DNA of 25,119 nucleotides from an uncultured Clostridia bacterium (lineage in GTDB: Bacteria > Bacillota > Clostridia > Lutisporales > Lutisporaceae). The stretch covers positions 1 through 25,119 of the forward strand of contig CALJSV010000153.1 of NCBI GenBank assembly GCA_937976095.1, read 5' to 3'. The position numbers and the translations under genes were made by a program. The notes beneath the pieces are model-generated. The model saw only the letters and a program-made list of their open reading frames with translations, searched no databases and was not told the DNA's origin. Position 1 is the first letter of the stretch; every line of letters starts with the position of its first letter. Shown here one piece after another: positions 2,567 to 24,968 of this stretch.

Positions 2567-2822
2567 ATTATCTCCTTTCGATCCCGCAGAACTATTCATA
2601 CATATGCTAAATTTCATTCAGCAACTTCTGTTTTTAATATTCTTATTATATCATCATCTTTACTAAGACTATTAGAGCAAGAAAAGTTATAATTAATTAT
2701 TCCATATATGGTGTTTTTTTAAGAGGTGAATCAAATATGACTATTAGTTGTCATATTTAGTGCGATATAATTATATTGGTGATGATATTGAAAATCTAAA
2801 AAAAGCAGTGAGGAAGGGTTAT

Positions 2823-3710
2823 ATGCATTACAAAGAGGCAAAGTCAATTTTATCAGCTAATAATGGAATGAATATATATCGCGGCTGCACCCATGGCTGT
2901 ATTTATTGTGACAGCAGAAGCAAATGCTACAATATGGAACATGATTTTGAGGATATTCAGGTTAAGATAAACGCTCCTGAGCTCTTGGAAAATGCCCTGA
3001 GGAGAAAACGTAAAAAGTGTATGATTGGAACAGGCGCCATGTGCGATCCATACATGCATATTGAAGTTGAGCTGGGGCATACGCGGAAGTGTCTTGAAAT
3101 AGTTGACAGGTACGGGTTTGGGCTAAGTATTCAAACAAAATCCGATAGAATATTAAGGGATTTGGACTTGTTAAAAAGTATTAACAGCAAATCCAAGTGC
3201 GTTGTTCAGATGACTTTAACAACCTATGATGAGGATCTTTGTGAAATAATTGAGCCAAAGGTTAGTACTACAAGAGAACGTTATGAAGCACTGAAGATAA
3301 TGAGGGACAACGGGATTCCCACTGTAGTATGGCTAGACCCGATTTTACCCCTTATAAATGATACTGAAGAAAATTTAAAAGGCATACTGGGTTATTGCAT
3401 TGATGCTAAAGTATTGGGGATAATTTGTTTTGGAATGGGGTTAACTTTAAGGGAAGGCAACAGAGAATATTTTTATGAGAAGCTTGATGCTCATTTTCCT
3501 GGGCTAAAGAAAACATATCATAAAAAATATGGCTATAGCTATGAACTGAAAAGTGATAACAACGAAAAACTATGGGAGATTTTTCATGACACATGTGAAA
3601 AGAGAGGCATAGTTCATAATAATGGAGAAATATTTAAATATCTTCACACATACGAAGAAGCTGTAGCAACAGAACAAACTACGATGTTTGAGCTTTTTAA
3701 AATTGAATGA
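2823..3710 (+). CDS. Radical SAM enzyme, SPL/DNA photolyase-like family (paralogue of 518-1375)
   Basis: CTHGCIYC motif plus the shared QTKSDRILRDLDL segment. The start is set at the ATG (MHYKEAKSIL) preceded by RBS GTGAGGAAGGG. The upstream TTG at 2748 used by the ORF track has no RBS. Confidence 0.7.
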   Translation: MHYKEAKSILSANNGMNIYRGCTHGCIYCDSRSKCYNMEHDFEDIQVKINAPELLENALRRKRKKCMIGTGAMCDPYMHIEVELGHTRKCLEIVDRYGFGLSIQTKSDRILRDLDLLKSINSKSKCVVQMTLTTYDEDLCEIIEPKVSTTRERYEALKIMRDNGIPTVVWLDPILPLINDTEENLKGILGYCIDAKVLGIICFGMGLTLREGNREYFYEKLDAHFPGLKKTYHKKYGYSYELKSDNNEKLWEIFHDTCEKRGIVHNNGEIFKYLHTYEEAVATEQTTMFELFKIE

Positions 3711-6613: not shown

Positions 6614-7819
6614 TTATCCCCTCAATATTTCGATTACAGAATTCTTAACTGACACATATAAGTTAGCTATTGAAGGCTCAGATATTAACGAGCCGATTAG
6701 ACAAATGTTACTTGAACTTTGTCTTTCAATTATGTCCTGATAAAAGCTTTGCGTCAGGTTATGCTCCTTTAAATGAGGGAATATGTACCACTGCTTTGCT
6801 GTTATCAAATGCTCAACATGGATTCCGGATCTTTCTATATCATCAGTTATTCCATTGATCAGATCCTTTTGGACGTTCCCATATGCATAGGCCACAAGAA
6901 TGGTACGGTTATTGTGCTTAAAGGTATGGAAAAACTGTATTTTACCTTTTTGCCATAAATGAGCTTTATAATAGGTTGTTACTAGGTTTTTGCTGCTTAC
7001 TTCATATGCACAAGTGATGAATGGATTGGTATCAATTTTCTTCATTAGTTGATTGCATAAATCGTCTTTGATGACATCTCTCGGCAGCTTGGTTGTAATA
7101 AGCACCTTGTCATAATAGTCGGAACCAAAGGCGGTTTCGACTTTCACTTTGTTACCCATAACTTCAATATTGTGAACCTCAATAGAATATCTTATATCCG
7201 ATATGTTTTGACTAAGCTTATTTATTAACTCTGAGGTGCCTTTGTTAATGAACAAAAGCTTATCTCCTCGTATAAAAGACAATATGGTGTCCACATTAAA
7301 GACCTTAAGTGCGTAGAAGGCCTGAGTACTATATATATCTCCAAAGCCATAGGAGGAAAGGTGAGGTGCAATAACCTGGTTGATGATATTCAGGTCATGC
7401 TTTCTGAGAAAGTCATACAACGGAACCAGTAAGTCTTCATGAATATATCCGTAATTAACAGTATTAATTGATGCAGAATATTTCCCCAAAAGCATCTTAA
7501 GCTTAGCCAGCTCATCCATTAGTAAAACCACATCTTCCCTTGACATATGCTCTACATTATTAAAATTTTCATCAACAAAGTTTCTGTAGGTAAATCTCTC
7601 AGTATAGTCAAGTCGCAGCTCTATCAGCAGCTCTTTAATCTGCTTTGTAAATGCGAAAACTGTGCCAAGCTCAGCAAATAAGTCTTTACTTGCAAATGTT
7701 CTGCAATGACCCCCTATATGCTCCTGCTTTTCATAAACAGTGACGTCTATTCCTTCTTTTTCTAGTAAGTATGCCGCGAGCATACCACTGAAACCCGCTC
7801 CAATAATAGCTATTCTCAT
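6614..7819 (-). CDS. FAD/NAD(P)-binding oxidoreductase (amine-oxidase/protoporphyrinogen-oxidase-like superfamily)
   Basis: N-terminal Rossmann motif IAIIGAGFSGMLAAYLLEKEGIDVTVYEKQEHIGGHC. The start is set at MRIAIIGAG, preceded by RBS AAAGGGGATTTT. Confidence 0.65.
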   Translation of the reverse strand: MRIAIIGAGFSGMLAAYLLEKEGIDVTVYEKQEHIGGHCRTFASKDLFAELGTVFAFTKQIKELLIELRLDYTERFTYRNFVDENFNNVEHMSREDVVLLMDELAKLKMLLGKYSASINTVNYGYIHEDLLVPLYDFLRKHDLNIINQVIAPHLSSYGFGDIYSTQAFYALKVFNVDTILSFIRGDKLLFINKGTSELINKLSQNISDIRYSIEVHNIEVMGNKVKVETAFGSDYYDKVLITTKLPRDVIKDDLCNQLMKKIDTNPFITCAYEVSSKNLVTTYYKAHLWQKGKIQFFHTFKHNNRTILVAYAYGNVQKDLINGITDDIERSGIHVEHLITAKQWYIFPHLKEHNLTQSFYQDIIERQSSSNICLIGSLISEPSIANLYVSVKNSVIEILRG

Positions 7820-7829
7820 AAAATCCCCT

Positions 7830-8816
7830 TTAATACTGCCTGTCAATATATGCCCATAAGGGCAGGATAAGGCGGCTATTTGTTAATTTATTATGATACT
7901 CAATAGGAGAACATACCTCATCCTCAAATGCTGTCTTATGGCTTATGTTGTATGCTCTAATGTACTTCTGAAGCTGAATTCTCAGATCATTGAAGGAAAT
8001 ACCTTCATGGATCAGAGGTATTAGAAATGATAGGCAGCCTTCTGTATATTGCTTTCTTAATTCGTCAATCATCGCCATGCTATCATCTGATTTAAGTATA
8101 TGTATTTTTACATCAAGTCCGTTATCTTGAGCTATTTTGCTAACTCTTGAGTTCAAGCTGCTTCTGGTTTGCTTAATGATTTTTAAATCATGGAAAAAGC
8201 AGAAGTACTTAACGTGCAAGCTTAGTGTTTGAGCCACCGGTATAGCTACAGCAGTTAATAAATCTTCAAAATTCTCAAATGATATATCGTGATACAGCCT
8301 TGTGCATGCTATTCTGCTTCTAAAATCAAATAAGGTATACTCATAAATGTTGCCTTGGGTTTGAAAATCCCCATAATAAGTTATCCAAAATATCCAGCAT
8401 TCTCCGCTGTTTAGTTCACTTATAGGAGGGAGCTGACTTGGGGGATTGTTTTCCTTCTTTTTTATAAATCTGACCCTGCTTTCTTTATTGGTAAGGTGGT
8501 GTCTTTTCATAACATTAAAGACAGCTGACTCACTTATGTTATATCCGATTTCTTCCAAAAGATATTTAATAGCCTTTGGTCCATAGCTGGGATATGCTTT
8601 CAATAGACTTAGCAATGCGTTTTCTATCTCATTGCTTGTTTTATTGACAGGAACAAAATCCTTCTTAACATCATCAAGACCTTCGATCCCCTGAGTTTTA
8701 TATCTTTTTAACCAACGATAATAAAGTGTCCTGGAAATGTTATATTTTCGGCAAGTTGTGCTTATGCCGTTTATTTGTCCTTCACTTATAATATTAAATT
8801 TAAGGTTTTTGTGCAT
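7830..8816 (-). CDS. Transposase-like protein: N-terminal HTH plus degenerate rve/integrase-core domain (IS481/IS3-like), probably domesticated
   Basis: The HTH segment is ISRTLYYRWLKRYKTQGIEGL. The core segment GECWIFWITYYG...LFDFRSRIACTRLY...YHDISFENF matches the integrase-core pattern, but the first catalytic Asp is replaced (W-I-T-Y rather than T-D-I-T). No inverted repeats are visible, and the gene abuts the oxidoreductase start. The start codon is uncertain (8816, 8828 or 8840). Confidence 0.45.
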   Translation of the reverse strand: MHKNLKFNIISEGQINGISTTCRKYNISRTLYYRWLKRYKTQGIEGLDDVKKDFVPVNKTSNEIENALLSLLKAYPSYGPKAIKYLLEEIGYNISESAVFNVMKRHHLTNKESRVRFIKKKENNPPSQLPPISELNSGECWIFWITYYGDFQTQGNIYEYTLFDFRSRIACTRLYHDISFENFEDLLTAVAIPVAQTLSLHVKYFCFFHDLKIIKQTRSSLNSRVSKIAQDNGLDVKIHILKSDDSMAMIDELRKQYTEGCLSFLIPLIHEGISFNDLRIQLQKYIRAYNISHKTAFEDEVCSPIEYHNKLTNSRLILPLWAYIDRQY

Positions 8817-8956
8817 AACAACCACCATTTTTACAATCAATTATTTTTGAGTGAGTAATATACTTTTTATTTTACCATCCCCAATGGTCTCCTTCAACAG
8901 TTAAAACTGTACCAAAGTATTTTAAATACTAATATCGAGCGCTGCTTGTAAAAAAA

Positions 8957-9065
8957 GTTACTTTGGATTTCTGTTTACAATCACTCTAGAGAAAGGTGTC
9001 AAGAATAGTCTGATTATTATGAGGCTACAGTATATTATGATATGTAAACACATAGGTAAAGTAAC
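8957..9065. repeat. Bipartite inverted repeat GTTACTTT-N7-TGTTTACA / TGTAAACA-N7-AAAGTAAC
   Basis: The left arm is at 8957-8979. The right arm at 9043-9065 is its reverse complement. The two 8-mers are separated by 7 nt in both arms. The pair sits upstream of the hypB promoter. Confidence 0.4.
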
Positions 9066-9094
9066 AACTCGAGAAAAACGCGTAAAATTCTTAA

Positions 9095-9123
9095 TTGTTG
9101 CGGCTTTTTTATCTTGCTATAAT
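9095..9123 (+). promoter_or_regulatory. Promoter for the hypB operon (TTGTTG-17-TGcTATAAT, extended -10)
   Basis: TATAAT lies at 9118-9123, preceded by TG. A -35-like TTGTTG lies 17 bp upstream. A second TATAAT is at 9130. Confidence 0.4.
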
Positions 9124-9153
9124 CAAAGTATAATCAGTTGCTGGAGGTCGAGT

Positions 9154-9819
9154 ATGAGTGAGTTAAAAGTTTTCACAATCAAAAAAAATATTCATGAAAA
9201 TAACGCTAAAGTTGCTCAAGCCACAAGAGAAGAATTAAAAAAGCAAGGTACATATCTTATTAACATCATGTCATCACCAGGTAGTGGAAAGACATCGACA
9301 CTTGTTAGTACAATCAAAGCATTAAAGGATGAGATTAAGATCGGTGTTATGGAAGCTGATATTGACTCGGATGTTGATGCAATAGCTGTTCAGACGGCAG
9401 GGGCAAAAGCAGTTCAAATGCACACAGGTGGGATGTGCCATTTAGACGCTACCATGACAAAGCAGGGTATTGATGAGTTAGGTGTAGAAGAATTGGACCT
9501 GGTTTTTCTGGAGAATATCGGAAACCTGATATGCCCGGCAGGCTATGATGTAGGAGCAATGAAAAATATAGCTATTTTAAGTGTTCCGGAAGGCGACGAT
9601 AAGCCTTTAAAATACCCTAAGATATTCGGGAAAGTAGATGTGCTGATCGTCAACAAAATCGATGTAATAGAGCATTTCGATTTTAGAATGGATTTGCTTG
9701 AGGAAAGAGTAAGAAAGCTGAACAAGGATATTACTATCTTTCCCATATCAGCAAAAACCGGTGAAGGTATGGATGAATGGTTAAATTGGATTAGAAAAGA
9801 AATAAAAACAAGGGGGTAG
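9154..9819 (+). CDS. hypB: Ni-metallochaperone GTPase HypB (G3E family)
   Basis: P-loop SSPGSGKTST. CH metal site GGMCHLDA. ENIGNLICPA and NKIDV motifs. RBS GGAGG lies 6 nt before ATG 9154. The longer ORF from 9019 would run through its own promoter. Confidence 0.8.
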   Translation: MSELKVFTIKKNIHENNAKVAQATREELKKQGTYLINIMSSPGSGKTSTLVSTIKALKDEIKIGVMEADIDSDVDAIAVQTAGAKAVQMHTGGMCHLDATMTKQGIDELGVEELDLVFLENIGNLICPAGYDVGAMKNIAILSVPEGDDKPLKYPKIFGKVDVLIVNKIDVIEHFDFRMDLLEERVRKLNKDITIFPISAKTGEGMDEWLNWIRKEIKTRG

Positions 9820-9824
9820 AAACA

Positions 9825-12599
9825 ATGCCCAAGAAACAAGAAAAAACAAACTTTAACAAGTCAAAGAGGTTTAACTTTGCTCTAAACTGGGCGGATGTAG
9901 ATGGTAGAGAGTATAGGCAAGAGATAGTGGACCTTGCAAACAAGATCGGAAGGACAAAAGCAGGCTCAAGCAGGGAGGCAATTCCCTTTGGTCCTGAATA
10001 TTATGCCCTTGCACCGATACTCAACGAATACCAAGCAAAAACAGCGATGCACTTGGAATTCCGTAAAAAGCTCAATGCAGAGGATGTTGCAAAAGCATCA
10101 GGAGAGCCATACGAAAAGGTAAAGGAAGCTCTGGACTATATTGCCTGGGCTGGAGTTGCCTTTGTAAATACAATAGCTGGAGTAGACGTGTATTGGCAGG
10201 ATATCTTTGTACCAGGCCACTTGGAAATGATAAATAACAACAAAGAGCTGGTTGCCAAGCACCCGGAGGTAGCAGAAGCCTTCTACTATTTTGGAAGCAA
10301 AAGAGGACCTATGGCTGCAGGCATAATGCCTATTGGTGCAGGACCAATGCGCGTACTGCCTATTGAAAGATCCATTGATGGAAACTCAAGAAAAGCTTCC
10401 TATGAAGAGCTGTCAAAGCACTTAAACGAAGCAAAAGTGTTCTCCGTATCTGATTGTTCCTGCAGGACTTCTCGTGAAGAAATGGGAGAAGGCTGCGGAC
10501 ACTTAAAGGAAAATATGTGTATTCAATTAGACCATGCTGCTGAATACTACATAAAAACAGGACGTGGAAGGAAGATCACTCGAGAAGAAGCCTTTGAGAT
10601 CATTAAAAGAGCAGAGGACAATGGCTTGATGCACTCTATTCCGAACTTGGATGAGCCGGGGCACACCCATGCTATTTGCAATTGCTGCGGATGTGGCTGT
10701 TATGCCATGAGATTAGCCAATGAATATGTAAATAATGATATTGTCAGGTCTAATTATAAGTCGGTTGTTGATGAATCTAAATGTGTAGCTTGCGGCGAGT
10801 GTGTGGATGTTTGTCCTACAAATGCATTAAGACTTGGACAGAAGCTATGCTCCAAAGCGCCTATTGATGAAAAAATGGTTAAGGCTACACCGAGAAATAA
10901 TGAGTGGAAGGAAGACAAATGGAACAGCGATTATAGAGTTAACAGGAAAAATACACTGGACTCAGGTACTGCTCCTTGTATTACCAACTGTCCCGCACAC
11001 ATTCCGGTACAGGGCTATATTAAGCTGGCTTCACAGGGTAAATATACAGAAGCCTTGGAATTGATTAAGAAGCATAATCCACTTCCAGCAGTATGCGGAC
11101 GTGTTTGCCCAAGACTGTGTGAGGAAGACTGTACACGTGGTGATATTGATGAAGCTGTAGCCGTTGATGATATCAAAAAGTTTATTGCAGAGCAGGATAT
11201 AAATAAGGATATTCGCTACATACCGAAGAAAAGACATGACTACAGTGACAAGAAGGTTGCCATTATCGGCGGAGGTCCTTCAGGGCTGACATGTGCTTAT
11301 GACTTAGCTATAGATGGTTATGATGTAACAGTATTTGAAAAAGAGAAAATGCTAGGGGGCATGCTGACATTTGGAATACCATCCTACAGGCTGGAAAAGG
11401 ATGTTATAGAAGCGGAAATAGCTATACTCAAGGAAATGGGAGTTAAGTTTGAGACCGGTGTGGAAGTCGGAAAGGATGTATCGATCCAAGGACTTAGAGA
11501 TAAAGGCTTTAATGCTTTCTATGTCGCTATCGGTGCGCAATCAGGAAGAAAGCTGGGATTAGAAGGGGAAACCGCTGCTGAAGTAATAAGCGGTGTAGAC
11601 TTCCTTCGAACAGTTAATTTGTCTGAACCAACCAACGTAAAGGGTAAAGTGATTGTCATTGGTGGAGGTAACGTTGCAATTGATGTTGCAAGATCTGCCG
11701 TAAGACTGGAAGGCGTAGTGCAAACAGATATTTTCTGTCTGGAAGCAAGAGAGACTATGCCTGCGCACCCTGAAGAAATAGAAGAGGCCTTGGCGGAAGA
11801 TGTGAATGTCAACACTTCATGGGGTCCGACGAGGATTATAGCAGAAAACGGTAAAGTAACAGGAGTAGAATTCAAGCGTTGCCTTTCTGTTTTTGATGCA
11901 GATGGCAGATTCAATCCAAAGTTTGATGAAGCAGATAAAAGGATTGTTGAATGTGATTATGTCTTGTTATCCGTAGGGCAAACCTACGACTATGGAAAGC
12001 TTCTGGAAGGTGAAGGTGTAAGGTTAACCAATAGGAATACAATTGAAGTGGATCCTGTGACTCTTCAAAGTTCAAAAGCAGACATTTTTGCCGGCGGAGA
12101 TGTTGCAAGTGGTCCAAAATTTGCCATAGATGCCATAGCGGCTGGTAAAGAAGCAGCAATTTCCATACACAGATTTGTACAAAGAGGTCAGTCCTTGGTA
12201 TTCGGTAGAGATACACACTCCTACAAAATGCTTGATAAGGAAAACCTGGGTGAAATACAAGGCTATGATGGTACAGTAAGACAAGGGACAAATCATGTGG
12301 ATGGCAAGGTATCAAAAACAACCTTTAAAGACTTAAGAGGTATCTTAACAGAAGAACAGATTAAGAAGGAAACAGCAAGATGTCTCGGCTGTGGTGCCAC
12401 TAAAACAGATGAGTACCTATGTGTTGGATGCGGAGCATGCACACTCAAGTGTAAATTTGAAGCAATAAAGCTTGAGAGGGTTAATGATGCAAAAGGTTAC
12501 AGAATTGAAGACCTGCCAAAGGTGGTAATTAAAAAAGCATTAGCCAGAAAAGTCAAAATAATGGCAAACAAAATAAATCCTTTTACAAAAGCAAGATAG
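9825..12599 (+). CDS. Multi-cluster Fe-S flavoprotein with three parts: an unknown Cys/His-rich N-terminal domain, a 4Fe-4S ferredoxin motif, and a GltD/NfnB/SudA-like FAD/NAD(P)H oxidoreductase with a C-terminal Cys cluster
   Basis: CVACGECVDVCP (ferredoxin). CITNCPAH...PAVCGRVCPRLCEEDC (GltD-type N-terminal clusters). VAIIGGGPSGLTCAY and VIVIGGGNVAIDVA (two dinucleotide folds). C-terminal CLGCGATKTDEYLCVGCGACTLKC. The N-terminal ~330 aa contain SDCSCRTSREEMGEGCGH and HTHAICNCCGCGC. Translationally coupled to hypB (5-bp gap, RBS GGGGG). Confidence 0.7.
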   Translation: MPKKQEKTNFNKSKRFNFALNWADVDGREYRQEIVDLANKIGRTKAGSSREAIPFGPEYYALAPILNEYQAKTAMHLEFRKKLNAEDVAKASGEPYEKVKEALDYIAWAGVAFVNTIAGVDVYWQDIFVPGHLEMINNNKELVAKHPEVAEAFYYFGSKRGPMAAGIMPIGAGPMRVLPIERSIDGNSRKASYEELSKHLNEAKVFSVSDCSCRTSREEMGEGCGHLKENMCIQLDHAAEYYIKTGRGRKITREEAFEIIKRAEDNGLMHSIPNLDEPGHTHAICNCCGCGCYAMRLANEYVNNDIVRSNYKSVVDESKCVACGECVDVCPTNALRLGQKLCSKAPIDEKMVKATPRNNEWKEDKWNSDYRVNRKNTLDSGTAPCITNCPAHIPVQGYIKLASQGKYTEALELIKKHNPLPAVCGRVCPRLCEEDCTRGDIDEAVAVDDIKKFIAEQDINKDIRYIPKKRHDYSDKKVAIIGGGPSGLTCAYDLAIDGYDVTVFEKEKMLGGMLTFGIPSYRLEKDVIEAEIAILKEMGVKFETGVEVGKDVSIQGLRDKGFNAFYVAIGAQSGRKLGLEGETAAEVISGVDFLRTVNLSEPTNVKGKVIVIGGGNVAIDVARSAVRLEGVVQTDIFCLEARETMPAHPEEIEEALAEDVNVNTSWGPTRIIAENGKVTGVEFKRCLSVFDADGRFNPKFDEADKRIVECDYVLLSVGQTYDYGKLLEGEGVRLTNRNTIEVDPVTLQSSKADIFAGGDVASGPKFAIDAIAAGKEAAISIHRFVQRGQSLVFGRDTHSYKMLDKENLGEIQGYDGTVRQGTNHVDGKVSKTTFKDLRGILTEEQIKKETARCLGCGATKTDEYLCVGCGACTLKCKFEAIKLERVNDAKGYRIEDLPKVVIKKALARKVKIMANKINPFTKAR

Positions 12600-12630
12600 A
12601 TTATATCTGTAGAAATTGAGGTATAGTGTA

Positions 12631-12972
12631 ATGCACGAACTAGGTATCGTTTATGAAGTCATCAAAATAGTCGATGGATTTGCAAAGGAAAATAATCTGA
12701 CAACAGTAGATAAAATTGTATTGGAGGTTGGACAATTATCTCAGGCAATTCCAAGATTTATTGAAGAGTGTTATCCTGCGGCAGTTAGTGAAACCGCATA
12801 TGAAAACACTAAGCTGGAGATCATTGTGCTTCCAGCCAAAGCAAAATGCAAGGCTTGCAATGAAGTATATAATATTATAGAGCACAGGAAAATCTGTCCT
12901 GAATGCCAGGGAGATGAATATAAATTAATATCAGGACAGGAATTCAATATTAAAGAAATTGTAGCATTTTAG
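12631..12972 (+). CDS. hypA: Ni-metallochaperone HypA
   Basis: N-terminal MHE (Ni site) followed by LGIVYEVIKIV. Zinc-ribbon CKACNEV...CPECQG. RBS GAGGT lies 8 nt before ATG 12631. Confidence 0.8.
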   Translation: MHELGIVYEVIKIVDGFAKENNLTTVDKIVLEVGQLSQAIPRFIEECYPAAVSETAYENTKLEIIVLPAKAKCKACNEVYNIIEHRKICPECQGDEYKLISGQEFNIKEIVAF

Positions 12973-13014
12973 AAGCTAACACACAGATTATATTATTATG
13001 ACAGGAGGTTTATC

Positions 13015-13980
13015 ATGGGGGTTTTTGAAGGTTTTTCAATGGGGAGTATTGTTGCATTTGTTTTATTTCTAGCCGTAATGCTTGGAGTGAACGAAGTTAC
13101 AAGAAGATCAAAATCGTTATCTATATTGGTGTACTGTGTCCTGCCTGTGGTATTGGCGGGGTTGGTATTCTCAGGAGTACTGGGGTCACCTACGGGAAAA
13201 ACATGGTTTGCTTGGGTTAAGGTAGTATCTGCATTGGCAGGTGTTTATGGCTTTATGCTGATCAGATTCACTAAGCTGGGTAAAAGTAGATTTGCAGCTA
13301 TATTCCCTGTAACTATCTTAGCATTGAACATTGCTGAAGCGGTTTATAGAGAATTTCAAGTATTTGCAACCTATAAGACATTAGAAGTAGATCCAGGCGG
13401 AGTCCTTGTCCTTGGTGGAACTTGGAATATTTTGAATGCAATAGCAGGAATTCTATGTATAGTAACCCTGACAGGATTTATTGGAATCAAGGTATCGAAA
13501 GACAAGTCAAGGGATATGGTATGGCCTGATATGACATGGATGTATATTATTGGTTATACATTATGGAACTTTGCATATGTTTACAATTGTATTTCAACAA
13601 GATCCATGTATGCCGGATTTGGCATCCTATCAGCAGCGCTTATTGCAGAATTTGTATTTAAAAGAGGGGTATGGCTTCAGCATAGAGCTCAGATTTTATC
13701 CTTTTATGCCATGTTTTCTCTGTCCGTAGATTTTCAGCAGAGCAAGTATTTCCAAGTACTGCCTACTTATAGCGAAGGTGCACTGATGACCATAAGCACT
13801 ATATCATTCTTGTTTAATGTAGGCGTGTTTGCTTATATGATTTACACAATCATAAAATACAAAAAGAATCCATTAAAGGAAGAGATTTATACTCATACTA
13901 ATTACTATAAGAAAAGCTTGATAGCCAATAATCTAGAGACGAAATCACAGGGGAAGCCCCTGAAAAGCTATACAGCATAG
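13015..13980 (+). CDS. Polytopic integral membrane protein of unknown function (last gene of the hypB operon)
   Basis: About 8 hydrophobic segments. RBS CAGGAGG. A strong terminator follows immediately downstream. Confidence 0.5.
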   Translation: MGVFEGFSMGSIVAFVLFLAVMLGVNEVTRRSKSLSILVYCVLPVVLAGLVFSGVLGSPTGKTWFAWVKVVSALAGVYGFMLIRFTKLGKSRFAAIFPVTILALNIAEAVYREFQVFATYKTLEVDPGGVLVLGGTWNILNAIAGILCIVTLTGFIGIKVSKDKSRDMVWPDMTWMYIIGYTLWNFAYVYNCISTRSMYAGFGILSAALIAEFVFKRGVWLQHRAQILSFYAMFSLSVDFQQSKYFQVLPTYSEGALMTISTISFLFNVGVFAYMIYTIIKYKKNPLKEEIYTHTNYYKKSLIANNLETKSQGKPLKSYTA

Positions 13981-14007: not shown

Positions 14008-14068
14008 ACTACCCCTTGCAAGTAGAGTAAGAATTACAGCTGCACTACTTGCAAGGGGTAGTTTTTTT
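14008..14068 (+). terminator. Rho-independent terminator
   Basis: Perfect 17-bp stem CTACCCCTTGCAAGTAG / CTACTTGCAAGGGGTAG with a 19-nt loop, followed by TTTTTTT. Confidence 0.75.
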
Positions 14069-17239: not shown

Positions 17240-17878
17240 ATGAACGAGCTTTTTACTACAGCTGTTACGGGAGTAAATATTATTCCTACCACTTTATTGG
17301 GCTTGGTTATTTTGTATTGGGTGTTTGTAATAGTTGGTGCTCTTGATTTGTCTTCCTTGGATATTGATATAGATGGGGATGCGGATTTGGACTCTATATC
17401 AGGTCCGTTGCATAGCATAATGCTGCTATTCAAAATAGGTCAACTTCCTATAGGGTTTGTTATCAGTGTTATCATTTTAGTATTTTGGGTATTATCAATG
17501 GCTATGCACTTACTGCCCTTTAAGACAGGGGGAATCCTTGCCGGCATTATCATGCTTCCCAGCTTCGTTTTAAGTATATTTATTACAAAAATTATCTTAA
17601 GCCCCTTTGAGAAAGCATTTAGGAGTAGGGTCAAGTCTGAGCTTGAGGAAGAAATCATTGAGGGCAGACGGGGAGTACTTCTATGCGACCTTACCTTTGG
17701 TCGTTTGGGGCAGGTTGAGATAAAAAGGAATGGCAGCCCAATAATTATCAATGTAAAGATGATAAAGGAAGAAGAATTACAAAAGGGAAATGAAGTTCTG
17801 ATCCTAAAAAAGGATGAAGAAAAAGACTTTTACTTAATTACTAAACTTGAAGGAGTGATAAACAAATGGCTTTCTTAA
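17240..17878 (+). CDS. NfeD-like membrane protein (YuaF/YqiJ family): TM helices plus C-terminal OB-fold
   Basis: Three or four TM segments. An acidic loop DIDIDGDADLDS. A C-terminal beta-rich segment EGRRGVLLCDLTFGRLGQVEIKRNGSPIIINVKMI typical of the NfeD OB-fold. It sits immediately upstream of a flotillin gene and overlaps it by 13 nt, as in yuaF-floT / yqiJ-yqiK. Confidence 0.7.
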   Translation: MNELFTTAVTGVNIIPTTLLGLVILYWVFVIVGALDLSSLDIDIDGDADLDSISGPLHSIMLLFKIGQLPIGFVISVIILVFWVLSMAMHLLPFKTGGILAGIIMLPSFVLSIFITKIILSPFEKAFRSRVKSELEEEIIEGRRGVLLCDLTFGRLGQVEIKRNGSPIIINVKMIKEEELQKGNEVLILKKDEEKDFYLITKLEGVINKWLS

Positions 17879-20001
17879 CACAAGTACCTTTCTTAACACA
17901 GGTAACATTAGTTACTGCAGTAGCTTTGGTTGTAATCGTTTTTGGACTAATTGCTTTAATATCCAAGTTTTACAAAAAAGTAGAACAGAGTAAGGTAATA
18001 GTACGAAATGGTGTTGGAGGACAGATCGTCTCATTTGGAGGAATGCTGGTTATACCTATTTTACATAGGGCAGAAATAATGGATGTTTCGGTAAAAAGAG
18101 TTGAAATATCAAGAGAGGGTAAGGATGGGCTGATCTGTAAGGATAACATGAGGGCAGACATAAGAGTTGCTTTCTTTGTCAGGGTTAACCAAACTAGGGA
18201 GGATGTGCTGAAGGTTGCTCAATCCCTGGGATGTCAAAAGGCTTCAGATCCAGGAACACTAATGGAATTCTTTGATGCAAAGTTTTCAGAAGCATTAAAA
18301 ACTGTAGGCAAGAAATTTGATTTCGTACAGCTATATACAGAAAGAGAAAAATTCAAAAGTGAAATTCTTCAGATTATAGGTACTGACTTAAATGGATATA
18401 TTCTTGAAGATGCAGCCATTGATTATTTGGAGCAGACTGATATAAATAAGCTAAACAGCAATAATATTCTTGATGCCGAGGGTATCAAAAAAATTACGGA
18501 GCTAACCTCTCATCAGTTGATTCTTGCAAATCAGATTGAGCGAAACAAGGAAAAAACTATTAAGCAGCAGGATGTGGCAGCTAGGGAGGCTATTCTTGAG
18601 CTTGAGAAACAGAATCAAGAAGCAGAAGCCCGTCAGCAAAGAGAAATAGCTATTATTAGAGCCAGAGAAAAAGCAGAGACTGATAAAGTCTCACAGGAAG
18701 AGCGCTTAAAGGCGGAGATGGCTCGCATTAAGACGGATGAGGATATTGCTATTGCAGAAGAAAACAAGCAAAGACAGATTGTTGTAGCAACAAAGTCTAA
18801 AGAAAGTACAGAAGTAGTAGAGACAGAAAGAGTTGATAAGAAGAGACTTTTGGAGAAGGTAGACAAAGAAAAGCTGGTAGCTCTTGCGGAGATCGATAAA
18901 GAGAAAACCCTTGAGGAAGAGAAGAAAAACATTCAGACAGTTATTCGTGAGCGTGTGGCTGTTGAAAAAGATGTAGTAATTGAAGAAGAGAAAATAAAAG
19001 ATACAAAGGTAATTGCTGAAGCTGAACGTCAAAAGCAAGCAGCTTTAAAAAAGGCTCAAGAGCAAGCAGAGTCTAATTTGATCGTAGAGGTTCAAAATGC
19101 CGAAGCGGCAAAGCAAGTAGCCGAAAGAGCTGCACAGCAAAGAGTTATTGAAGCTGAAGCTAAGCTGCAATCTTCAGAAAAGGAAGCTGAGGCTATCAAA
19201 ATACTTGCTGATGCTCAGATAGTGCAGGCAGCCACAAGTGGATTGGCAGAAGCCCGCGTTATAGAGACAAAGGCGTCAGCTATGGAAAAGGAAGGCGGCT
19301 CGAAGGCAAGAGTAATGGAGGCAACAGCGGAGGCAGAAGCTAAAGCAATCGAGATAAAAGCACTGGCAGAAGCAAAGGGCGAAGAGGCAAAGGTTATTGT
19401 AAGAGAAAAATCCGGAACTGTTGAGGTTGATATTATGTCTAAAAAATATCATGCCGAAGCAGAAGGGATTGCGAAAAAAGCTACCAGCATGAAGGCACTG
19501 GATGAAGCAGGCAGAGGTCACGAGGAGTTTAAGCTTAAGCTTGATAAAGAGAAGGAAATTGAGCTTGCTCAAATAAATATTCAAAAGGATATAGCAGAAG
19601 CACAAGCAGCAGTTATAAGTGAAGCCTTGAAGTCAGCATCTATTGATATCGTTGGCGGAGAGACAATGTTCTTTGACAAAATCGTTGGTGCTATTACCCA
19701 AGGTAAGTCCGTTGACCGTGTTGTTAAAAACAGCGAGGTGCTAAGTGATATTAAGAACACTTTTATCACAGGTGATGGAGATTATTTTAGATCTCAGTTA
19801 GAGAGACTGACTTCAAAATTCAATCTGACTTCAGAGGACTTAAAAAATCTATCAATTTCAGCTGCTATTCACAAAGCAATGAAGTTTGCGGATTCATCCG
19901 AGAAGACAGCGCTTATGAAGCTACTGGAAACTGCAGAAAAGGCGGGCTTAGCAAATTTGCCGGCTAACCTTCTTGGAAAACAAATTACTAGCAATGAGTA
20001 A
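17866..20001 (+). CDS. floT: Flotillin-like SPFH/band-7 protein (FloT/YqiK family), unusually long
   Basis: N-terminal TM helix followed by KKVEQSKVIVRNGVGG. SPFH domain. Roughly 300 aa of E/A/K-rich coiled coil. 711 aa in total. Confidence 0.8.
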   Translation: MAFLTQVPFLTQVTLVTAVALVVIVFGLIALISKFYKKVEQSKVIVRNGVGGQIVSFGGMLVIPILHRAEIMDVSVKRVEISREGKDGLICKDNMRADIRVAFFVRVNQTREDVLKVAQSLGCQKASDPGTLMEFFDAKFSEALKTVGKKFDFVQLYTEREKFKSEILQIIGTDLNGYILEDAAIDYLEQTDINKLNSNNILDAEGIKKITELTSHQLILANQIERNKEKTIKQQDVAAREAILELEKQNQEAEARQQREIAIIRAREKAETDKVSQEERLKAEMARIKTDEDIAIAEENKQRQIVVATKSKESTEVVETERVDKKRLLEKVDKEKLVALAEIDKEKTLEEEKKNIQTVIRERVAVEKDVVIEEEKIKDTKVIAEAERQKQAALKKAQEQAESNLIVEVQNAEAAKQVAERAAQQRVIEAEAKLQSSEKEAEAIKILADAQIVQAATSGLAEARVIETKASAMEKEGGSKARVMEATAEAEAKAIEIKALAEAKGEEAKVIVREKSGTVEVDIMSKKYHAEAEGIAKKATSMKALDEAGRGHEEFKLKLDKEKEIELAQINIQKDIAEAQAAVISEALKSASIDIVGGETMFFDKIVGAITQGKSVDRVVKNSEVLSDIKNTFITGDGDYFRSQLERLTSKFNLTSEDLKNLSISAAIHKAMKFADSSEKTALMKLLETAEKAGLANLPANLLGKQITSNE

Positions 20002-20018
20002 ATGAGGTGTAGTGAGCT

Positions 20019-23000
20019 GTGGGTGAACTAAAAACAACTGAACAAGGCGGACAAAATCCAGCCGAAGGTATTGAAAATGGCACATATGAATTAATAAAGA
20101 GCAGACTAGGCAAAATAGGCAGCGACCTGAAGGAAAAACTCGATAAATTAAATATTTCCAGAAGAAGCGTGTTTGGTTCAATTGAGACAACCCTGCTCGG
20201 CAGTGAAAAGATTATTACTGAAAACAATTGCGTCCCACGAGACATGGCTCCCGTGGGAGCTTTGTTTATCTTCGGTTACAACGTATATATTGGACTGAAA
20301 TCCTCTGTTGAGCTTTCTGACGTCTTTTCCATCTATGAATACAAGGGTGGATCATTCCACAAACAATCCTTAGAGCTTATTAACAATGATCAATTTTTAA
20401 ACGACTTCAAAGAATTATATAAGTACTACAAGAATACTTTCTTTGCAAAGTTTACAAATGTAGGACCTTATCTTTATATGGTATTTCAGACCGGGAAGAG
20501 TCCCTTTGATATAAAAGCCTTCAAATGGCTTATGAAGGATGGCAAGCTTTCCTACGTAGACAACAGGAGTGAGCATGAGGTAAGACTGAAGGTTCAAAGT
20601 GAGCTTGATTGGGTTAGAGCTAAGAGAGAGGATCACTGTGAGGGCAGGCATCCGCATATATCAATTAGAGATAAGGTCTTTGTAGAAACCTTAGGTGGAG
20701 ACCTTACTATAAAGGTAGAGAATAACACGGATACCGGTAAAGGCATTTACTCTGAGACTGTGGAAGATATGGATCAGACCCTTGATGATGCTGAAATATA
20801 TTATGCGTCAGTAGGAAATCTAATACTTTTGAAAATTCTTCCTTACAGGGAAAAAGAGTACCGCTACATAATATTTAATGAAAAGCTGCAGATGGTTGTT
20901 CGAGTAGATGCTATAAAGGATTCTTGCGTGCTGTTGCCGGATAACCATGGACTTATATTCCCTAAGGGCTATTATTTGCAAAGCGGTGAACATAAGCTTT
21001 TTGAAGTGCCCAGTGAAGGCTTTGTTTTTGTTCAGCGTATAGAAGCTCCTAATGGAGAGGATTTTCAGTACATTTTCTACAATATGGAAACGGGATTATA
21101 CCTGATATATACATACAATATAATTGAGCAATCATTGGAAATACCGATAATCTGTGGTGGCTACTCACATTTTAACAATGGTGAGATGGTGATTTTTAAG
21201 GGGGAAGACGAGCCTCGTAAGAACCATACCCTGCAAATATGGCAGACTCCATATGTGGGAGAAGGCTACACGGTTGAGAATAAAAGCGACTCAGTTCTGT
21301 ATAAAATAGGCAATAAAGAAGTTGTTCATTGTATGGCAGACTGCAAGGTAGTATATAACCTTATTCAAAAAGGGGAGAGCTATACAAGCATATACCTGGA
21401 CATCGTAAAAGACACTGAAAGAATTATGGACTCTTATTATTGGCTGGACAAAGCTGAGGCCTTTAACCTGAAAGCAGTGCTAAAAAGCGTAAAAGAGGCT
21501 GCTACTTCAGCAGTTGCTGAGTTTGAAAAGGTAACAAGAATAAGGTGTTCTACAGAGAAGCAAATCAAAGAAGTAGATGAAAAGGCTCAAGTGCTGCTGA
21601 AGAATGCTGAGTACGGTACATTTGACAGTATTCAAGGTTATGTGCAGATTCTGGCAGATTTAAGGTCTTTAAGAGGAGAGATAGCTTCTCTCAAGGCCTT
21701 GCGCTACACTAATTTGCCGCTGGTTGAGTCACTGGAAGAGAAGGTCAAAGAAAAAAATGAAAGGCTAACCCAAAGATGTACTGAGTTTCTTCTGGTTCCT
21801 GAAGGACTCAGGCCTTACTCACAGCAGGTTGACAATCAGCAGAGCCAGATTCCTTCTATTACTAAGACCTCTTCGGGAAAAGAGCTGGAGAATGAGATGG
21901 CAAAATCCTCTCAGGACTTAGAGCTGCTAATTGATATTGTAAGCAATTTTAATATAGAAGACCCGACAAAAACAACAGAGATAATTGAAAATATATCTGC
22001 CATATTTTCTCTCCTAAACCAGGCTAAAGCAAAGCTGAAAAACCGTATGGTAGAGCTTTCCGAAAAAGAGGGAATTGCACAGTTTCACTCCCAGATGAAG
22101 CTGCTAGACCAAGCTGCTGTTAATTATCTTGAAGTTGCAGATGGCATGGAAAAATGCGAATTATATCTGAACAAGATAATGGTACAGATTGAGGAGCTGG
22201 AAGGCAGATTTGCAGATTTTGAAGACTTCATTGTAAAGCTTAATGAAAAGCGGGAAGAGCTTTATAATGCTTTTGAAGCAAAAAAACAGATGATTTTAGA
22301 GAAACGGAACAAAAAGCTCACTGCTCTTTTTGGCACATCTGAGAGGATACTAACTGGAATTATCAGCCGACTTCAGGGCTTTAATACTATTAATGAGATT
22401 AACGGCTACCTTGCATCAGATATCATGATCGATAAGGTAAGAGATATCATTGATCAGCTTAAGGCATTGGGAGATAGTGTGAAGGCTGATGAAATTGAAG
22501 GAAGGCTAAAGATAATAAAAGAGGAGGCTATCCGTCAGCTAAAAGACAAACAGGAGTTATTTGTTCATGGGAAAAACGTAATTAAGCTCGGCAGGCATTA
22601 CTTTTCCTATAATACTCAGCAGCTTGAGCTGTCAATGGTGCAAAAGGACGGAGAACTATATTTTCATATTACTGGAACTGATTTCTGGGAAAAAGTATCA
22701 TCAGATAGTATGGCTAAGTTCCACTACCTGTGGGACCAGGAAGTACTGTCAGAATCTAAGTATATTTATCGTGCCGAGTACCTTGCATATAAGATATTTG
22801 AGGCAGCTTTAAGTAAGGAGGTAGTATCCCTTGATACGCTTTATTCATACTCTGAGGAACAGCTATTGGAATACATCCGCAAGTTTATGGAGCCACGTTA
22901 TCAAGAGGGATATACAAAAGGTGTCCATGACGCAGATTGTCACAAACTACTAAAAGCGCTTTTGAATTTGCACATGAATATTGACCTGTTAACCTACAGT

Positions 23001-24968
23001 CCAAAATCCAGAGCCATTGCAAAGCTATACTGGCAGTGCATAGCCGGCTCAGAAATAAAGGATAAGTTTAGCAGACGCTTAAGGGAATTGGCAAAAATAA
23101 GCATGTACTTCAAGACAGAGCCTGGATTGGGGGATTATATCCCTACCATCGAAACAGAAATGAACAGTGCTTTCAATAATTACAAATTCGTTGATAAAGG
23201 CTTTGTTTATGAAGCTTCAGAATATCTATGCAGGGAGCTAATGCGTGGCAGCTCATTTATAGCAAGTCTTGAAGCAGATGAAGCCAAAAGCAAGTTTTTG
23301 CAACATCTTAAAGCCAATAAAGCAGAAAGCCTTTTTGCTGAGTCTCTTAAGGCCTTTAATGAAGACTTGGAAGGAGCATATTATCTTGTACGGGAGTGGC
23401 TTACTGCGTTCTTTAAAGAAACAGGCTTAAATGAGGGCATTGACGTAATGGATGAAGTCATTACTTTGTTAATTGTTGATAGTAGCAAAGTCGACATCAG
23501 CAGACAAAAAGTTATTAACATGAAAACAAGGGTGATGATCACCGAATTAAGTGGAAATCATCCAAGCATAAAAGGAGGAGAGTATACTCTTTCATATACA
23601 GAGTTCATGAAAAAACTAAAGGAATATGATAAAACTGTTGTATGTGATTTCATTGAATTTCAAGCTTTGAAGAAGGAGCTTTCACAGAGATTTAGAGATG
23701 AACTCCGCTTGGAGGAGTTTAAGCCTAATGTGTTATCCTCCTTTGTAAGAAATCGATTAATAGATAAGGTGTATCTGCCGTTGATTGGTGATAACCTTGC
23801 AAAACAAATAGGTACAGCAGGCGAAGATAAACGAACAGACCTGATGGGCATGCTTCTATTGATATCTCCACCAGGCTATGGAAAGACAACCCTTGTAGAG
23901 TATATTGCAAATCGTCTTGGCATTTTTCTTATCAAGATCAACGGACCTGCTATTGGAAACGATGTAACTTCACTGGATCCTGCTATGGCTCCAAATGCAG
24001 GTGCAAGAGAAGAGCTGAGAAAGCTCAACCTAGCCTTTAAAATGGGCAACAATGTTATGATTTATCTGGATGATATACAGCACTGCAGCCCGGAGTTTCT
24101 GCAAAAGTTTATTCCTCTGTGTGACGGACAAAGGAAAATTGAAGGTGTTTATAATGGGATGGGGCAATCCTATGACCTTAGAGGGAAGAAGCTGGCTGTT
24201 GTCATGGCAGGGAATCCATACACAGAGAGCGGTGAAAAGTTCCAGATTCCTGACATGCTTGCAAATAGAGCAGATGTCTATAATCTTGGAGACATGCTCC
24301 ACGAAAACGAAAATGCATTTAAGCTGAGCTATATCGAGAATTCTTTGACCTCTAACCCTATTCTTAATAAGCTTGCATCCAGAAGTCAGAAAGATATTTA
24401 CACTATGATTGACATTGCAGAGAATGGGGAAAGAGAGGGCTTGGATTTTGAAAGCCAATACTCTGTTGAAGAGATAAATGAGTTTGTGGCTGTTATTCAA
24501 AAGCTTATGAAGGTGCGCGATATAGTTCTAAAGATCAATATGGAATATATCTATTCTGCTGCACAAGCTGATGAATACAGAAAAGAGCCACCCTTTAAGC
24601 TTCAAGGCTCCTACAGGAATATGAACAAAATATCAGAAAGAATAGTTCCATTAATGAATGATGAAGAGCTGATGCAAATGGTTGCGAACGCCTATGAAAA
24701 TGACTCGCAAACCTTAACACAGGGAGCAGAAGGCAATATGCTGAAATGGAAGGATATTGCAGGACATATCAATGAACAAGAAGCCTTGAGGTGGAAGGAA
24801 ATAAGAGATATTTTCTTAAAAAACAAGCTGGCGAGGGATGATAGCAAAATAGGTCAGGCAATTATTAAGCTTGGTGATTTAAATGAACAGCTAGGGGTTA
24901 TGACAAGCGTACTGACAAAAGGTGTAGAGAGGATGTGTGGTCACACCCCAGCTCCGCCAAATAAGTAA
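20019..24968 (+). CDS. Giant (1649 aa) protein: unknown N-terminal ~480-aa domain, long coiled-coil/helical middle region, C-terminal single AAA+ ATPase of the MoxR/McrB (helix-2-insert) clade
   Basis: GTG start with RBS GAGGTG, 17 bp after the flotillin stop. Walker A LISPPGYGKTT. Walker-B region MIYLDDIQHCSPEFLQ (compare MoxR hhhhDEINRA). AVVMAGNPYTESGEKFQIPDMLANRADV matches the MoxR ATQNP...LPEAQLDRF segment. Confidence 0.7.
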   Translation: MGELKTTEQGGQNPAEGIENGTYELIKSRLGKIGSDLKEKLDKLNISRRSVFGSIETTLLGSEKIITENNCVPRDMAPVGALFIFGYNVYIGLKSSVELSDVFSIYEYKGGSFHKQSLELINNDQFLNDFKELYKYYKNTFFAKFTNVGPYLYMVFQTGKSPFDIKAFKWLMKDGKLSYVDNRSEHEVRLKVQSELDWVRAKREDHCEGRHPHISIRDKVFVETLGGDLTIKVENNTDTGKGIYSETVEDMDQTLDDAEIYYASVGNLILLKILPYREKEYRYIIFNEKLQMVVRVDAIKDSCVLLPDNHGLIFPKGYYLQSGEHKLFEVPSEGFVFVQRIEAPNGEDFQYIFYNMETGLYLIYTYNIIEQSLEIPIICGGYSHFNNGEMVIFKGEDEPRKNHTLQIWQTPYVGEGYTVENKSDSVLYKIGNKEVVHCMADCKVVYNLIQKGESYTSIYLDIVKDTERIMDSYYWLDKAEAFNLKAVLKSVKEAATSAVAEFEKVTRIRCSTEKQIKEVDEKAQVLLKNAEYGTFDSIQGYVQILADLRSLRGEIASLKALRYTNLPLVESLEEKVKEKNERLTQRCTEFLLVPEGLRPYSQQVDNQQSQIPSITKTSSGKELENEMAKSSQDLELLIDIVSNFNIEDPTKTTEIIENISAIFSLLNQAKAKLKNRMVELSEKEGIAQFHSQMKLLDQAAVNYLEVADGMEKCELYLNKIMVQIEELEGRFADFEDFIVKLNEKREELYNAFEAKKQMILEKRNKKLTALFGTSERILTGIISRLQGFNTINEINGYLASDIMIDKVRDIIDQLKALGDSVKADEIEGRLKIIKEEAIRQLKDKQELFVHGKNVIKLGRHYFSYNTQQLELSMVQKDGELYFHITGTDFWEKVSSDSMAKFHYLWDQEVLSESKYIYRAEYLAYKIFEAALSKEVVSLDTLYSYSEEQLLEYIRKFMEPRYQEGYTKGVHDADCHKLLKALLNLHMNIDLLTYSPKSRAIAKLYWQCIAGSEIKDKFSRRLRELAKISMYFKTEPGLGDYIPTIETEMNSAFNNYKFVDKGFVYEASEYLCRELMRGSSFIASLEADEAKSKFLQHLKANKAESLFAESLKAFNEDLEGAYYLVREWLTAFFKETGLNEGIDVMDEVITLLIVDSSKVDISRQKVINMKTRVMITELSGNHPSIKGGEYTLSYTEFMKKLKEYDKTVVCDFIEFQALKKELSQRFRDELRLEEFKPNVLSSFVRNRLIDKVYLPLIGDNLAKQIGTAGEDKRTDLMGMLLLISPPGYGKTTLVEYIANRLGIFLIKINGPAIGNDVTSLDPAMAPNAGAREELRKLNLAFKMGNNVMIYLDDIQHCSPEFLQKFIPLCDGQRKIEGVYNGMGQSYDLRGKKLAVVMAGNPYTESGEKFQIPDMLANRADVYNLGDMLHENENAFKLSYIENSLTSNPILNKLASRSQKDIYTMIDIAENGEREGLDFESQYSVEEINEFVAVIQKLMKVRDIVLKINMEYIYSAAQADEYRKEPPFKLQGSYRNMNKISERIVPLMNDEELMQMVANAYENDSQTLTQGAEGNMLKWKDIAGHINEQEALRWKEIRDIFLKNKLARDDSKIGQAIIKLGDLNEQLGVMTSVLTKGVERMCGHTPAPPNK

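Follow-up and report, generated by a model that had tools for sequence, protein, structure and literature searches.

Genes for the nickel chaperones HypA and HypB neighbour that of an IsrA-like iron-sulphur flavoprotein and follow its cysteine-rich N-terminal domain

The 25,119-nt stretch of DNA analysed here (the window) is the whole of contig CALJSV010000153.1 from an uncultured Clostridia bacterium of the Lutisporaceae (assembly GCA_937976095.1). Between the genes for the nickel chaperones HypB and HypA it encodes a 924-residue iron-sulphur (Fe-S) flavoprotein that, judged by its sequence, belongs to the 'clade 9' family of proteins resembling IsrA, a putative isoprene reductase. A functional link between hypAB and this flavoprotein appears well supported, and nickel in the enzyme is likely. 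We regard as probable a model in which this linked nickel enzyme, encoded in a cluster of six genes, would reduce a bond that is hard to reduce. The HypAB linkage, the co-occurrence with DUF5692 proteins and the nickel hypothesis were already published in 2023 and are not new. What is new here is that the chaperone link maps to a Cys-rich N-terminal domain without a solved structural analogue, and that the genes form a conserved six-gene cluster with a transposase-derived helix-turn-helix (HTH) protein and a flavoprotein partner that resembles a polyunsaturated fatty-acid isomerase (PAI-like protein).

On the forward strand, the map of open reading frames (ORFs) and profile searches give an operon of hypB (9154–9819), the gene for the 924-aa IsrA-like oxidoreductase (9825–12599), hypA (12631–12972) and a gene for a polytopic membrane protein of the DUF5692 family (13015–13980). 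An earlier note on this DNA had described hypB and hypA as bracketing the flavoprotein gene with gaps of 5 and 31 bp; the coordinates (9820–9824 and 12600–12630) and the profile scores agree, and a further gap of 42 bp precedes the DUF5692 gene. It had also placed a membrane protein at the end of the operon, before a strong terminator, and both are there. The membrane protein scores 356 bits against PF18948, and the intrinsic terminator (14009–14068, forward strand), a hairpin read from the sequence, has a perfect 17-bp stem (14009–14025 paired with 14045–14061), a 19-nt loop and a run of seven T (14062–14068). It is absent from the output of the consensus scan because its loop exceeds the 8-nt maximum of that scan.

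HypB scores 246 bits against TIGR00073 (cutoff 121) and also matches PF02492. Its translation contains the P-loop SSPGSGKT, the G-domain nickel ligands GGMCH and NLICP, and NKID, so that the profile match, the GTPase motifs and the metal site of the family are all present. It is of the short type, lacking a His-rich or CxxCGC N-terminal extension, and its ATG is preceded by a GGAGG ribosome-binding site. HypA scores 105 bits against PF01155 (cutoff 28.9) and 80.2 bits against the TIGR00100 equivalog, slightly under the cutoff of 88.1; alongside the profile match, its translation has the MHE N-terminus and the pair of CxxC motifs that make up the Zn site (CKAC...CPEC).

The link between these chaperones and the flavoprotein was assessed in 76 loci from one-genome-per-species contigs and two further loci found by exact look-up. 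Neighbours were scored by tblastn and by hidden Markov models built from the matches, the counts refer to copies with enough flanking sequence to judge, and the tiers are defined by identity to the window protein. In the tier of at least 75% identity, HypA is encoded directly downstream in 36 of 37 copies and HypB adjacently in 33 of 34, with DUF5692 in 24 of 34 and the PAI-like and HTH proteins in 28 of 29 each. The 55–65% tier, with Treponema, Izemoplasma, Clostridium amylolyticum and Ferrimonas pelagia, has HypA directly downstream in 10/12, HypB adjacent in 8/13, DUF5692 in 5/9, and the PAI-like and HTH proteins in 2/11 each. For the 40–52% tier, mostly Oscillospiraceae, the corresponding figures are 11/14, 1/15, 0/14, 0/13 and 0/13. 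None of these genes accompanies the relatives at 30–36% identity that consist of the flavoprotein core and have no N-terminal domain (HypA 0/13, HypB 0/12, DUF5692 0/12, PAI-like 0/11, HTH 0/11). Pooled over all tiers with the N-terminal domain, the counts are 57 of 63 copies for hypA directly downstream and 42 of 62 for adjacent hypB; the nominal Fisher p value for HypA in domain-bearing versus core-only copies (2e-10) is illustrative only, as the loci are not phylogenetically independent.

The same gene order recurs in dozens of genomes of Bacillota, Spirochaetota, Mycoplasmatota and a gammaproteobacterium. The reductase is 75–90% identical across Clostridia, Tissierellales, Spirochaetota, Haloplasma and other Mycoplasmatota (L001–L045), and both the spirochaete Thiospirochaeta perfilievii and Haloplasma contractile have all six genes, amid flanks that are unrelated. 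Such high identity combined with unrelated flanks suggests that the cluster has spread horizontally as a whole while being strongly constrained. Because the order is conserved across phyla, with unrelated flanks, and does not occur in core-only relatives, the hypAB neighbourhood is far more than chance and coincidence is very unlikely. Of the two readings that the earlier note had left standing, the functional link that it preferred is strongly supported by the hypA counts, by the lack of a nearby hydrogenase and by a published precedent in Acetobacterium wieringae ISORED-2 (PMC10134865). Tandem duplication of the reductase-hypA pair is common in the 40–52% tier; the Oscillospiraceae loci L046, L047, L051, L052, L053 and L057 have two such pairs, either in tandem or near each other, and no hypB within 10 kb. 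In these bacteria HypA may act alone, or hypB may be encoded elsewhere.

The alternative that hypAB matures a [NiFe]-hydrogenase or a urease encoded elsewhere, its position here being meaningless, draws on HypA and HypB being canonical maturation factors of those enzymes, and Pelotomaculum schinkii indeed has [NiFe]-hydrogenases in addition to an isrA-like gene (Pelotomaculum preprint, February 2026). Such a chaperone pair would hardly be expected to stay beside the reductase across phyla and to be missing from the 13 core-only relatives, nor to have a hypA in each of two tandem reductase-hypA pairs in some genomes. Neither the [NiFe] large-subunit motifs nor the HypD motif were found in the 1.14 Mb of examined neighbourhoods (63 related loci), and ISORED-2 keeps the linkage while having neither the hydrogenase nor hypCDEF (PMC10134865). 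We therefore consider this alternative highly improbable. A literature search on hydrogenases in Haloplasma gave nothing usable.

The flavoprotein itself cannot be read as a hydrogenase large subunit. The motifs RxCGxCxxxH and DPCxxCxx[HR], whose absence from the 924-aa protein had been pointed out from the sequence, do not occur in any ORF of the window, nor does the HypD motif GPGCPVC, and there is no Pfam match to NiFeSe_Hases in the window. With no signature motifs in the 63 related loci either, identity with a [NiFe]-hydrogenase large subunit was rejected. The locus does share with [NiFe]-hydrogenase systems the same two chaperones with intact nickel-binding motifs and a cysteine-rich presumed target, but a large-subunit fold or motif, hypCDEF, a maturation protease and a small subunit are all absent.

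Residues 322–860 of the 924-aa protein are homologous to Fe-S flavoproteins of the NfnB/NfnA/GltD/DPD type, with E values in the Protein Data Bank (PDB) from 1e-103 to 1e-44 and top matches (9bov, 9n5u (NfnA), 8oh5, 4ylf and 5jca) between 1e-103 and 1e-61. This NfnB/GltD-like core combines a two-cluster Fer4_20 domain with FAD and NAD(P)H Rossmann folds. In the Pfam/NCBIfam architecture, the protein has Fer4 (residues 314–336), Fer4_20 (380–461), Pyr_redox_2 (476–774) and a C-terminal Fer4 cysteine set (853–876), with a ferredoxin motif CxxCxxCxxxC at residues 320–330; altogether there are FAD- and NAD(P)H-binding motifs and cysteine sets for four [4Fe-4S] clusters. The label 'GltD/NfnB-like' given to the protein in the earlier note is apt for residues 322–860 but overlooked its distinguishing part, the Cys-rich N-terminal domain of ~310 residues, which is lacking in the NfnB, GltD and DPD proteins (9n5u, 4ylf, 5jca, 6s6s and 1gt8, and the fused 9bov and 8oh5).

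This N-terminal domain (residues 1–310; 9825–10754, forward strand) has no match in Pfam or NCBIfam, and a PDB sequence search gave no solved relative for it, the matches beginning at residue 322. It comprises a winged-helix-like subdomain (residues ~56–125) and a Cys-rich alpha/beta subdomain (~170–310). Alignments of homologues bring out two motifs of conserved residues in the latter, both encoded on the forward strand: C211-x-C213-R214 ... C224-G-H226 ... C232 (10455–10520) and H270 ... I-C285-N-C287-C288-G-C290-G-C292 (10632–10700). In 61 full-length homologues C211, C213, C232, C285, C287, C292, H270, R214 and N286 are invariant, and C288 and C290 are 93% conserved. When the alignment was widened to 72 sequences of 22–95% identity, including stand-alone domain proteins, C211, C213, C232, C285 and C287 remained invariant and C292, H270, R214 and N286 were at least 90% conserved. 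The domain is also the best conserved part of the protein, with 81–93% identity in the tier of at least 75%, compared with 75–90% for the whole protein. We propose that it may be the catalytic and nickel-binding module.

AlphaFold2 models built on a diverse alignment reached a predicted local distance difference test (pLDDT) score of 81 and a predicted template modelling score (pTM) of 0.83 for the whole N-terminal domain, and a pLDDT of 80 for its Cys-rich part alone (residues 170–345). In fold searches the whole-domain model matched only generic winged-helix regulators, which are uninformative on chemistry, and the Cys-rich part had no significant match. These searches led us to reject a fold likeness to acetyl-CoA synthase (ACS), carbon monoxide dehydrogenase (CODH), nitrogenase, hydrogenase or double-cubane proteins. 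The clustering of the six cysteines in space is taken from the published model of IsrA (PMC10134865).

IsrA is a 901-aa 'FAD-dependent oxidoreductase' described as the putative isoprene reductase of A. wieringae ISORED-2 (Kronen et al., 2023, mSystems, PMC10134865). Its operon has the order isrA-hypA-hypB-ferredoxin-hypA, with two hypA genes, one hypB and one ferredoxin gene, and isoprene induces IsrA together with the Hyp proteins of the operon (PMC10134865). The first ~270 residues of IsrA have no annotated domain; in the ColabFold model six cysteines in this region, including two CxC, form 'cluster V', which ends a chain of four [4Fe-4S] clusters and was likened to the P-cluster and to double-cubane sites, a resemblance to ACS in the model also being remarked upon (PMC10134865). 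[quoted passage not shown] Among 988 IsrA homologues the reported co-occurrence was 0.73 for HypA, 0.56 for HypB, 0.40 for DUF5692 and 0.21 for TetR (PMC10134865). In Pelotomaculum under isoprene, hypA was up 373-fold and hypB 585-fold; the 'Ni-dependent isoprene reductase' of that report is a suggestion, for which the authors call for biochemical characterisation (Pelotomaculum preprint, February 2026).

Members of clade 9, cluster III, of the published family are ~47–49% identical to IsrA (PMC10134865). The window protein is 79% identical over residues 1–924 to a homologue from Acetobacterium malicum DSM 4132 (L015), which has an HTH protein and a flavoprotein encoded next to it, in agreement with the published description of this cluster; because of this matching neighbourhood we take the A. 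malicum homologue to be the published member. The assignment of the window protein to clade 9 goes through this bridge. In keeping with it, the window protein has the architecture of the clade, six cysteines with two CxC, a close named member, and hypA and hypB nearby. It shares with IsrA and clade 9 a length of ~900 aa, an unannotated N-terminal domain of ~270–310 residues with the Cys6 site, a core that holds FAD, NAD(P)H and four [4Fe-4S] clusters, and adjacent hypA and hypB genes; its DUF5692 neighbour is one that the published family often has. The isr operon proper is not matched. The window has the order hypB-reductase-hypA-DUF5692, a single hypA and no stand-alone ferredoxin, and, unlike the isr operon, it has the divergent pair of HTH and PAI-like genes.

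Searching residues 1–322 against 1.84 billion representative proteins (E ≤ 1e-3) recovered 1668 clusters at 50% identity, which fall into two architectures: fused proteins of ~900 aa, and stand-alone proteins of ~360 aa that consist of the domain and a 2x[4Fe-4S] ferredoxin and resemble the ferredoxin of the isr operon. One stand-alone protein picked at random (L082) is followed by hypA. A metagenome scan with a six-sequence subgroup of the stand-alone proteins gave 80 loci (L083–L162; median stop-to-stop ORF of 376 aa), of which 16 have hypA directly adjacent and seven of these hypB as well; where each flank measures 500 bp or more, hypA is adjacent in 10 of 55 loci. Since the stand-alone domain recruits hypA in about one-fifth of cases and core-only relatives never do so in our sample, the hypA/hypB link follows the Cys-rich N-terminal domain and not the flavoprotein core. 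Certain branches of the family abound in sequenced samples: an 883-aa relative (P0131), with 40% identity in the N-terminal domain, belongs to a 90%-identity cluster of 1353 members, one of which is found on 255 contigs.

That the domain holds nickel is a further step. According to one alternative the link is functional but the protein is no nickel enzyme: the site would be an all-iron, non-cubane or double-cubane centre, and these HypA and HypB proteins, which are divergent, would handle zinc, iron or cobalt, assist folding, or serve another partner such as the DUF5692 protein or the regulator. The CxC and CC-rich motifs are known Fe-S ligands, the IsrA paper itself compares the site to the P-cluster and double-cubane centres (PMC10134865), most stand-alone domain proteins have no hypA beside them, HypA falls short of its equivalog cutoff, and hypB is missing near nearly all copies of the 40–52% tier. 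Against these points, HypA retains the nickel-binding MHE N-terminus and HypB the CH...C Ni/Zn site, and the operon of one relative is joined to a Ni/Co transporter. We also know of no precedent for HypAB handling a metal other than nickel in vivo. On balance we judge an all-iron or other nickel-free role to be improbable, if deserving of some weight.

Another alternative accepts the nickel and changes the reaction: the protein would be a new NAD(P)-linked hydrogenase, or an H2 or CO enzyme, with a nickel-thiolate site, and no C=C reductase. Nickel chaperones together with a Cys-rich site, a wire of Fe-S clusters and a flavoprotein module for NAD(P)H do follow the logic of soluble NAD-reducing hydrogenases. 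There is, however, no nearby hypCDEF to supply Fe(CN)2CO, the fold is unlike that of hydrogenase, CODH or ACS, an organic substrate is suggested by the membrane protein and the PAI-like partner, and the sole physiological data tie the family to hydrogenation of isoprene and butadiene. This reading, too, strikes us as having very little probability. With ACS there is a likeness of motif: Cys-Gly-Cys units, as in the ligand set of the distal nickel of its A-cluster (Ni-Ni-[4Fe-4S]), also occur in the window protein in C288-G-C290-G-C292.

The divergent arm of the cluster comprises the HTH gene (7830–8840) and the PAI-like gene (6614–7846), both on the reverse strand. In the tier of at least 75% identity the HTH gene keeps its position in 28 of 29 loci, including those of the spirochaete and Haloplasma, and a homologue of the PAI-like gene is present in 28 of the 29 loci that could be judged. 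In Pfam the HTH protein matches only HTH_28/HTH_32 at its N-terminus, and against the NCBIfam model of IS481 it scores 86 bits (cutoff 224) over model positions 16–181 of 284. The reading of 7830–8840 as a mobile transposase of the IS481/IS3 type was rejected on the subthreshold score, the HTH-only match and the fixed position; its product is probably a domesticated transposase that acts as regulator of the cluster. The gene is co-oriented with the PAI-like gene and lies 10 bp upstream of it, its likely true start being MHKNLKF (~nt 8816).

The PAI-like protein is a FAD flavoprotein of the amine-oxidase fold (Pfam Amino_oxidase and NAD_binding_8) with a likely true start at M10 (MRIAIIGAG, ~nt 7819). 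Its only strong solved relative is 2b9w (E = 6.8e-24, residues 10–389 against 7–404), the polyunsaturated fatty-acid isomerase of P. acnes that produces conjugated linoleic acid (CLA); the flavoprotein partner of the Acetobacterium type matches the same entry at E = 3.5e-40. An arginine of the PAI-like protein aligns with Arg88 of the 2b9w chain, a carboxylate ligand, which is a lead only. PAI has been described as a fatty-acid double-bond isomerase (PMC13365329). The homology between the 401–410-aa PAI-like proteins and the P. acnes isomerase is full-length but of low identity, and the fold family also takes in amine oxidases and desaturases.

Between the two arms lies a divergent intergenic region (8841–9153, read from the sequence) that presumably holds promoters and an operator. 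It has one weak inverted repeat (8943–8952 with 8974–8983), and its promoter-like matches are not above shuffle expectation. No Rfam family, the NiCo riboswitch included, matched anywhere in the window. The G+C content is raised to 0.43 in the 10–12 kb region, against ~0.37 around it.

The DUF5692 protein has no solved structural relative. W, Y and N are frequent among its conserved residues, which include a single His and a single Cys, and a search for the conserved His/Asp/Cys transport motifs of a nickel permease gave no clear one. Across the identity tiers it tracks the reductase independently of the PAI-like gene, and it could act as a permease, for nickel or for the substrate, or as a general accessory, for instance in nickel uptake. 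In the gammaproteobacterium Ferrimonas pelagia (L033 7762–8985) the DUF5692 gene lies upstream of hypB and its product has an extra N-terminal extension of ~140 residues. In T. perfilievii (L001 14110–16475), the only such case among the sampled loci, genes for a Ni/Co transporter of the energy-coupling factor type (CbiM/CbiQ/ABC-ATPase) directly follow DUF5692. In the Acetobacterium-type cluster (L015 13184–14044, L020 13332–14099) an arylamine N-acetyltransferase (PF00797, E = 1e-64) takes the place of DUF5692.

The nickel-enzyme model that we favour may be put together as follows. The horizontally spread six-gene cluster, complete in the window, consists of an arm with the HTH and PAI-like genes and an arm with hypB, the reductase, hypA and DUF5692. 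HypB, in a GTP-dependent manner, and HypA would deliver Ni(II) to the Cys-rich N-terminal site to form a nickel or Ni-Fe-S centre. Electrons would pass from NAD(P)H to FAD and along the [4Fe-4S] chain to this centre, which would hydrogenate a hard-to-reduce bond; if IsrA, with its induction by isoprene, is a guide, this is most likely a C=C bond, unactivated or conjugated, in a hydrophobic compound. More speculatively, the PAI-like protein would act on a polyunsaturated lipid or polyene and bring its double bonds into conjugation, for the reductase to saturate, in biohydrogenation or detoxification; the HTH protein would regulate the cluster, and the DUF5692 protein would import the substrate or nickel.

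The pairing of isomerase and reductase is attractive because isoprene and 1,3-butadiene, the substrates linked to IsrA (PMC10134865), are both conjugated dienes. The N-acetyltransferase variant, the unrelated neighbours in the other tiers and the lack of supporting literature count against it, a search for a biohydrogenation or CLA reductase linked to HypAB or nickel having found nothing; we thus hold it rather unlikely that the isomerase makes conjugated dienes that an IsrA-like reductase would saturate. The fuller proposal, in which the Cys-rich domain may carry a new nickel-thiolate or Ni-Fe-S cofactor that HypAB would install without HypCDEF, in a new class of nickel enzyme that would hydrogenate unactivated or conjugated C=C bonds and, in the window subclade, act after the PAI-like isomerase as the missing reductase of an anaerobic route for biohydrogenation or detoxification of polyenes or polyunsaturated lipids, is tentative and to our minds somewhat doubtful.

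Several observations weigh against the favoured model or parts of it. HypA also serves urease in Helicobacter and so is not strictly specific for hydrogenase or for a single target. The view of the genome is that of the 25-kb contig, and a hydrogenase may lie beyond it, as the hydrogenase-or-urease alternative would have it. Near the 40–52% tier copies, hypB is adjacent in the single case given above. The literature yielded no metal analysis of IsrA-like proteins, and the Cys6 site could be purely Fe-S. No hypA adjoins about 80% of the stand-alone proteins with the N-terminal domain, and homologues of the stand-alone ferredoxin of the isr operon were reported to have no association with HypA or HypB (PMC10134865), a statement that the hypA linkage of stand-alone proteins found here refines. 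The assignment of a substrate is weak. A. malicum and A. dehalogenans, which carry close homologues of the window subclade, do not reduce isoprene (PMC10134865), and by analogy with these strains the substrate of the window subclade would differ from isoprene. The arylamine N-acetyltransferase of the Acetobacterium variant hints at aromatic amine chemistry, with which a lipid substrate fits poorly, and the neighbours in the 55–65% and 40–52% tiers (GntR regulators, a sulfatase, deacetylases and proteases) are variable and give no clue to the substrate.

The remaining genes of the window lie on either side of the cluster. Two radical-SAM genes on the forward strand (518–1375 and 2748–3710) have no evident tie to the hyp cluster and are flanked by genes for a GyrI-like/Cass2 effector-binding protein, an APH-family phosphotransferase and alpha/beta hydrolases. 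Downstream, three co-oriented genes (17240–24968, forward strand) encode a 212-aa protein without an assigned family, a 711-aa SPFH/Band-7 protein and a 1649-aa DUF3686/DUF7902/AAA protein, the DUF3686 of which is described as 'ATPase involved in DNA repair'. A reading of these large downstream ATPase genes as a defence system was dropped, as PADLOC gave no match for them.

Few classes of nickel enzyme are known. Within the family, the window locus belongs to the branch with the strongest conservation and the widest spread, with 75–90% identity from Clostridia to spirochaetes and Haloplasma, and its cultivable carriers include Clostridium grantii, Proteiniclasticum ruminis, Alkaliphilus hydrothermalis, Haloplasma contractile and Thiospirochaeta perfilievii. 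The chaperone link that follows the domain and the near-constant PAI-like partner point to a site to probe and to substrates to try. If the model is true, a nickel centre matured by HypAB outside the hydrogenases and able to reduce unactivated C=C bonds would add a new class to them; such a centre would account for 'orphan' hypAB genes in anaerobes lacking a [NiFe]-hydrogenase, and hydrogenation by biocatalysts would be a field of interest for it.

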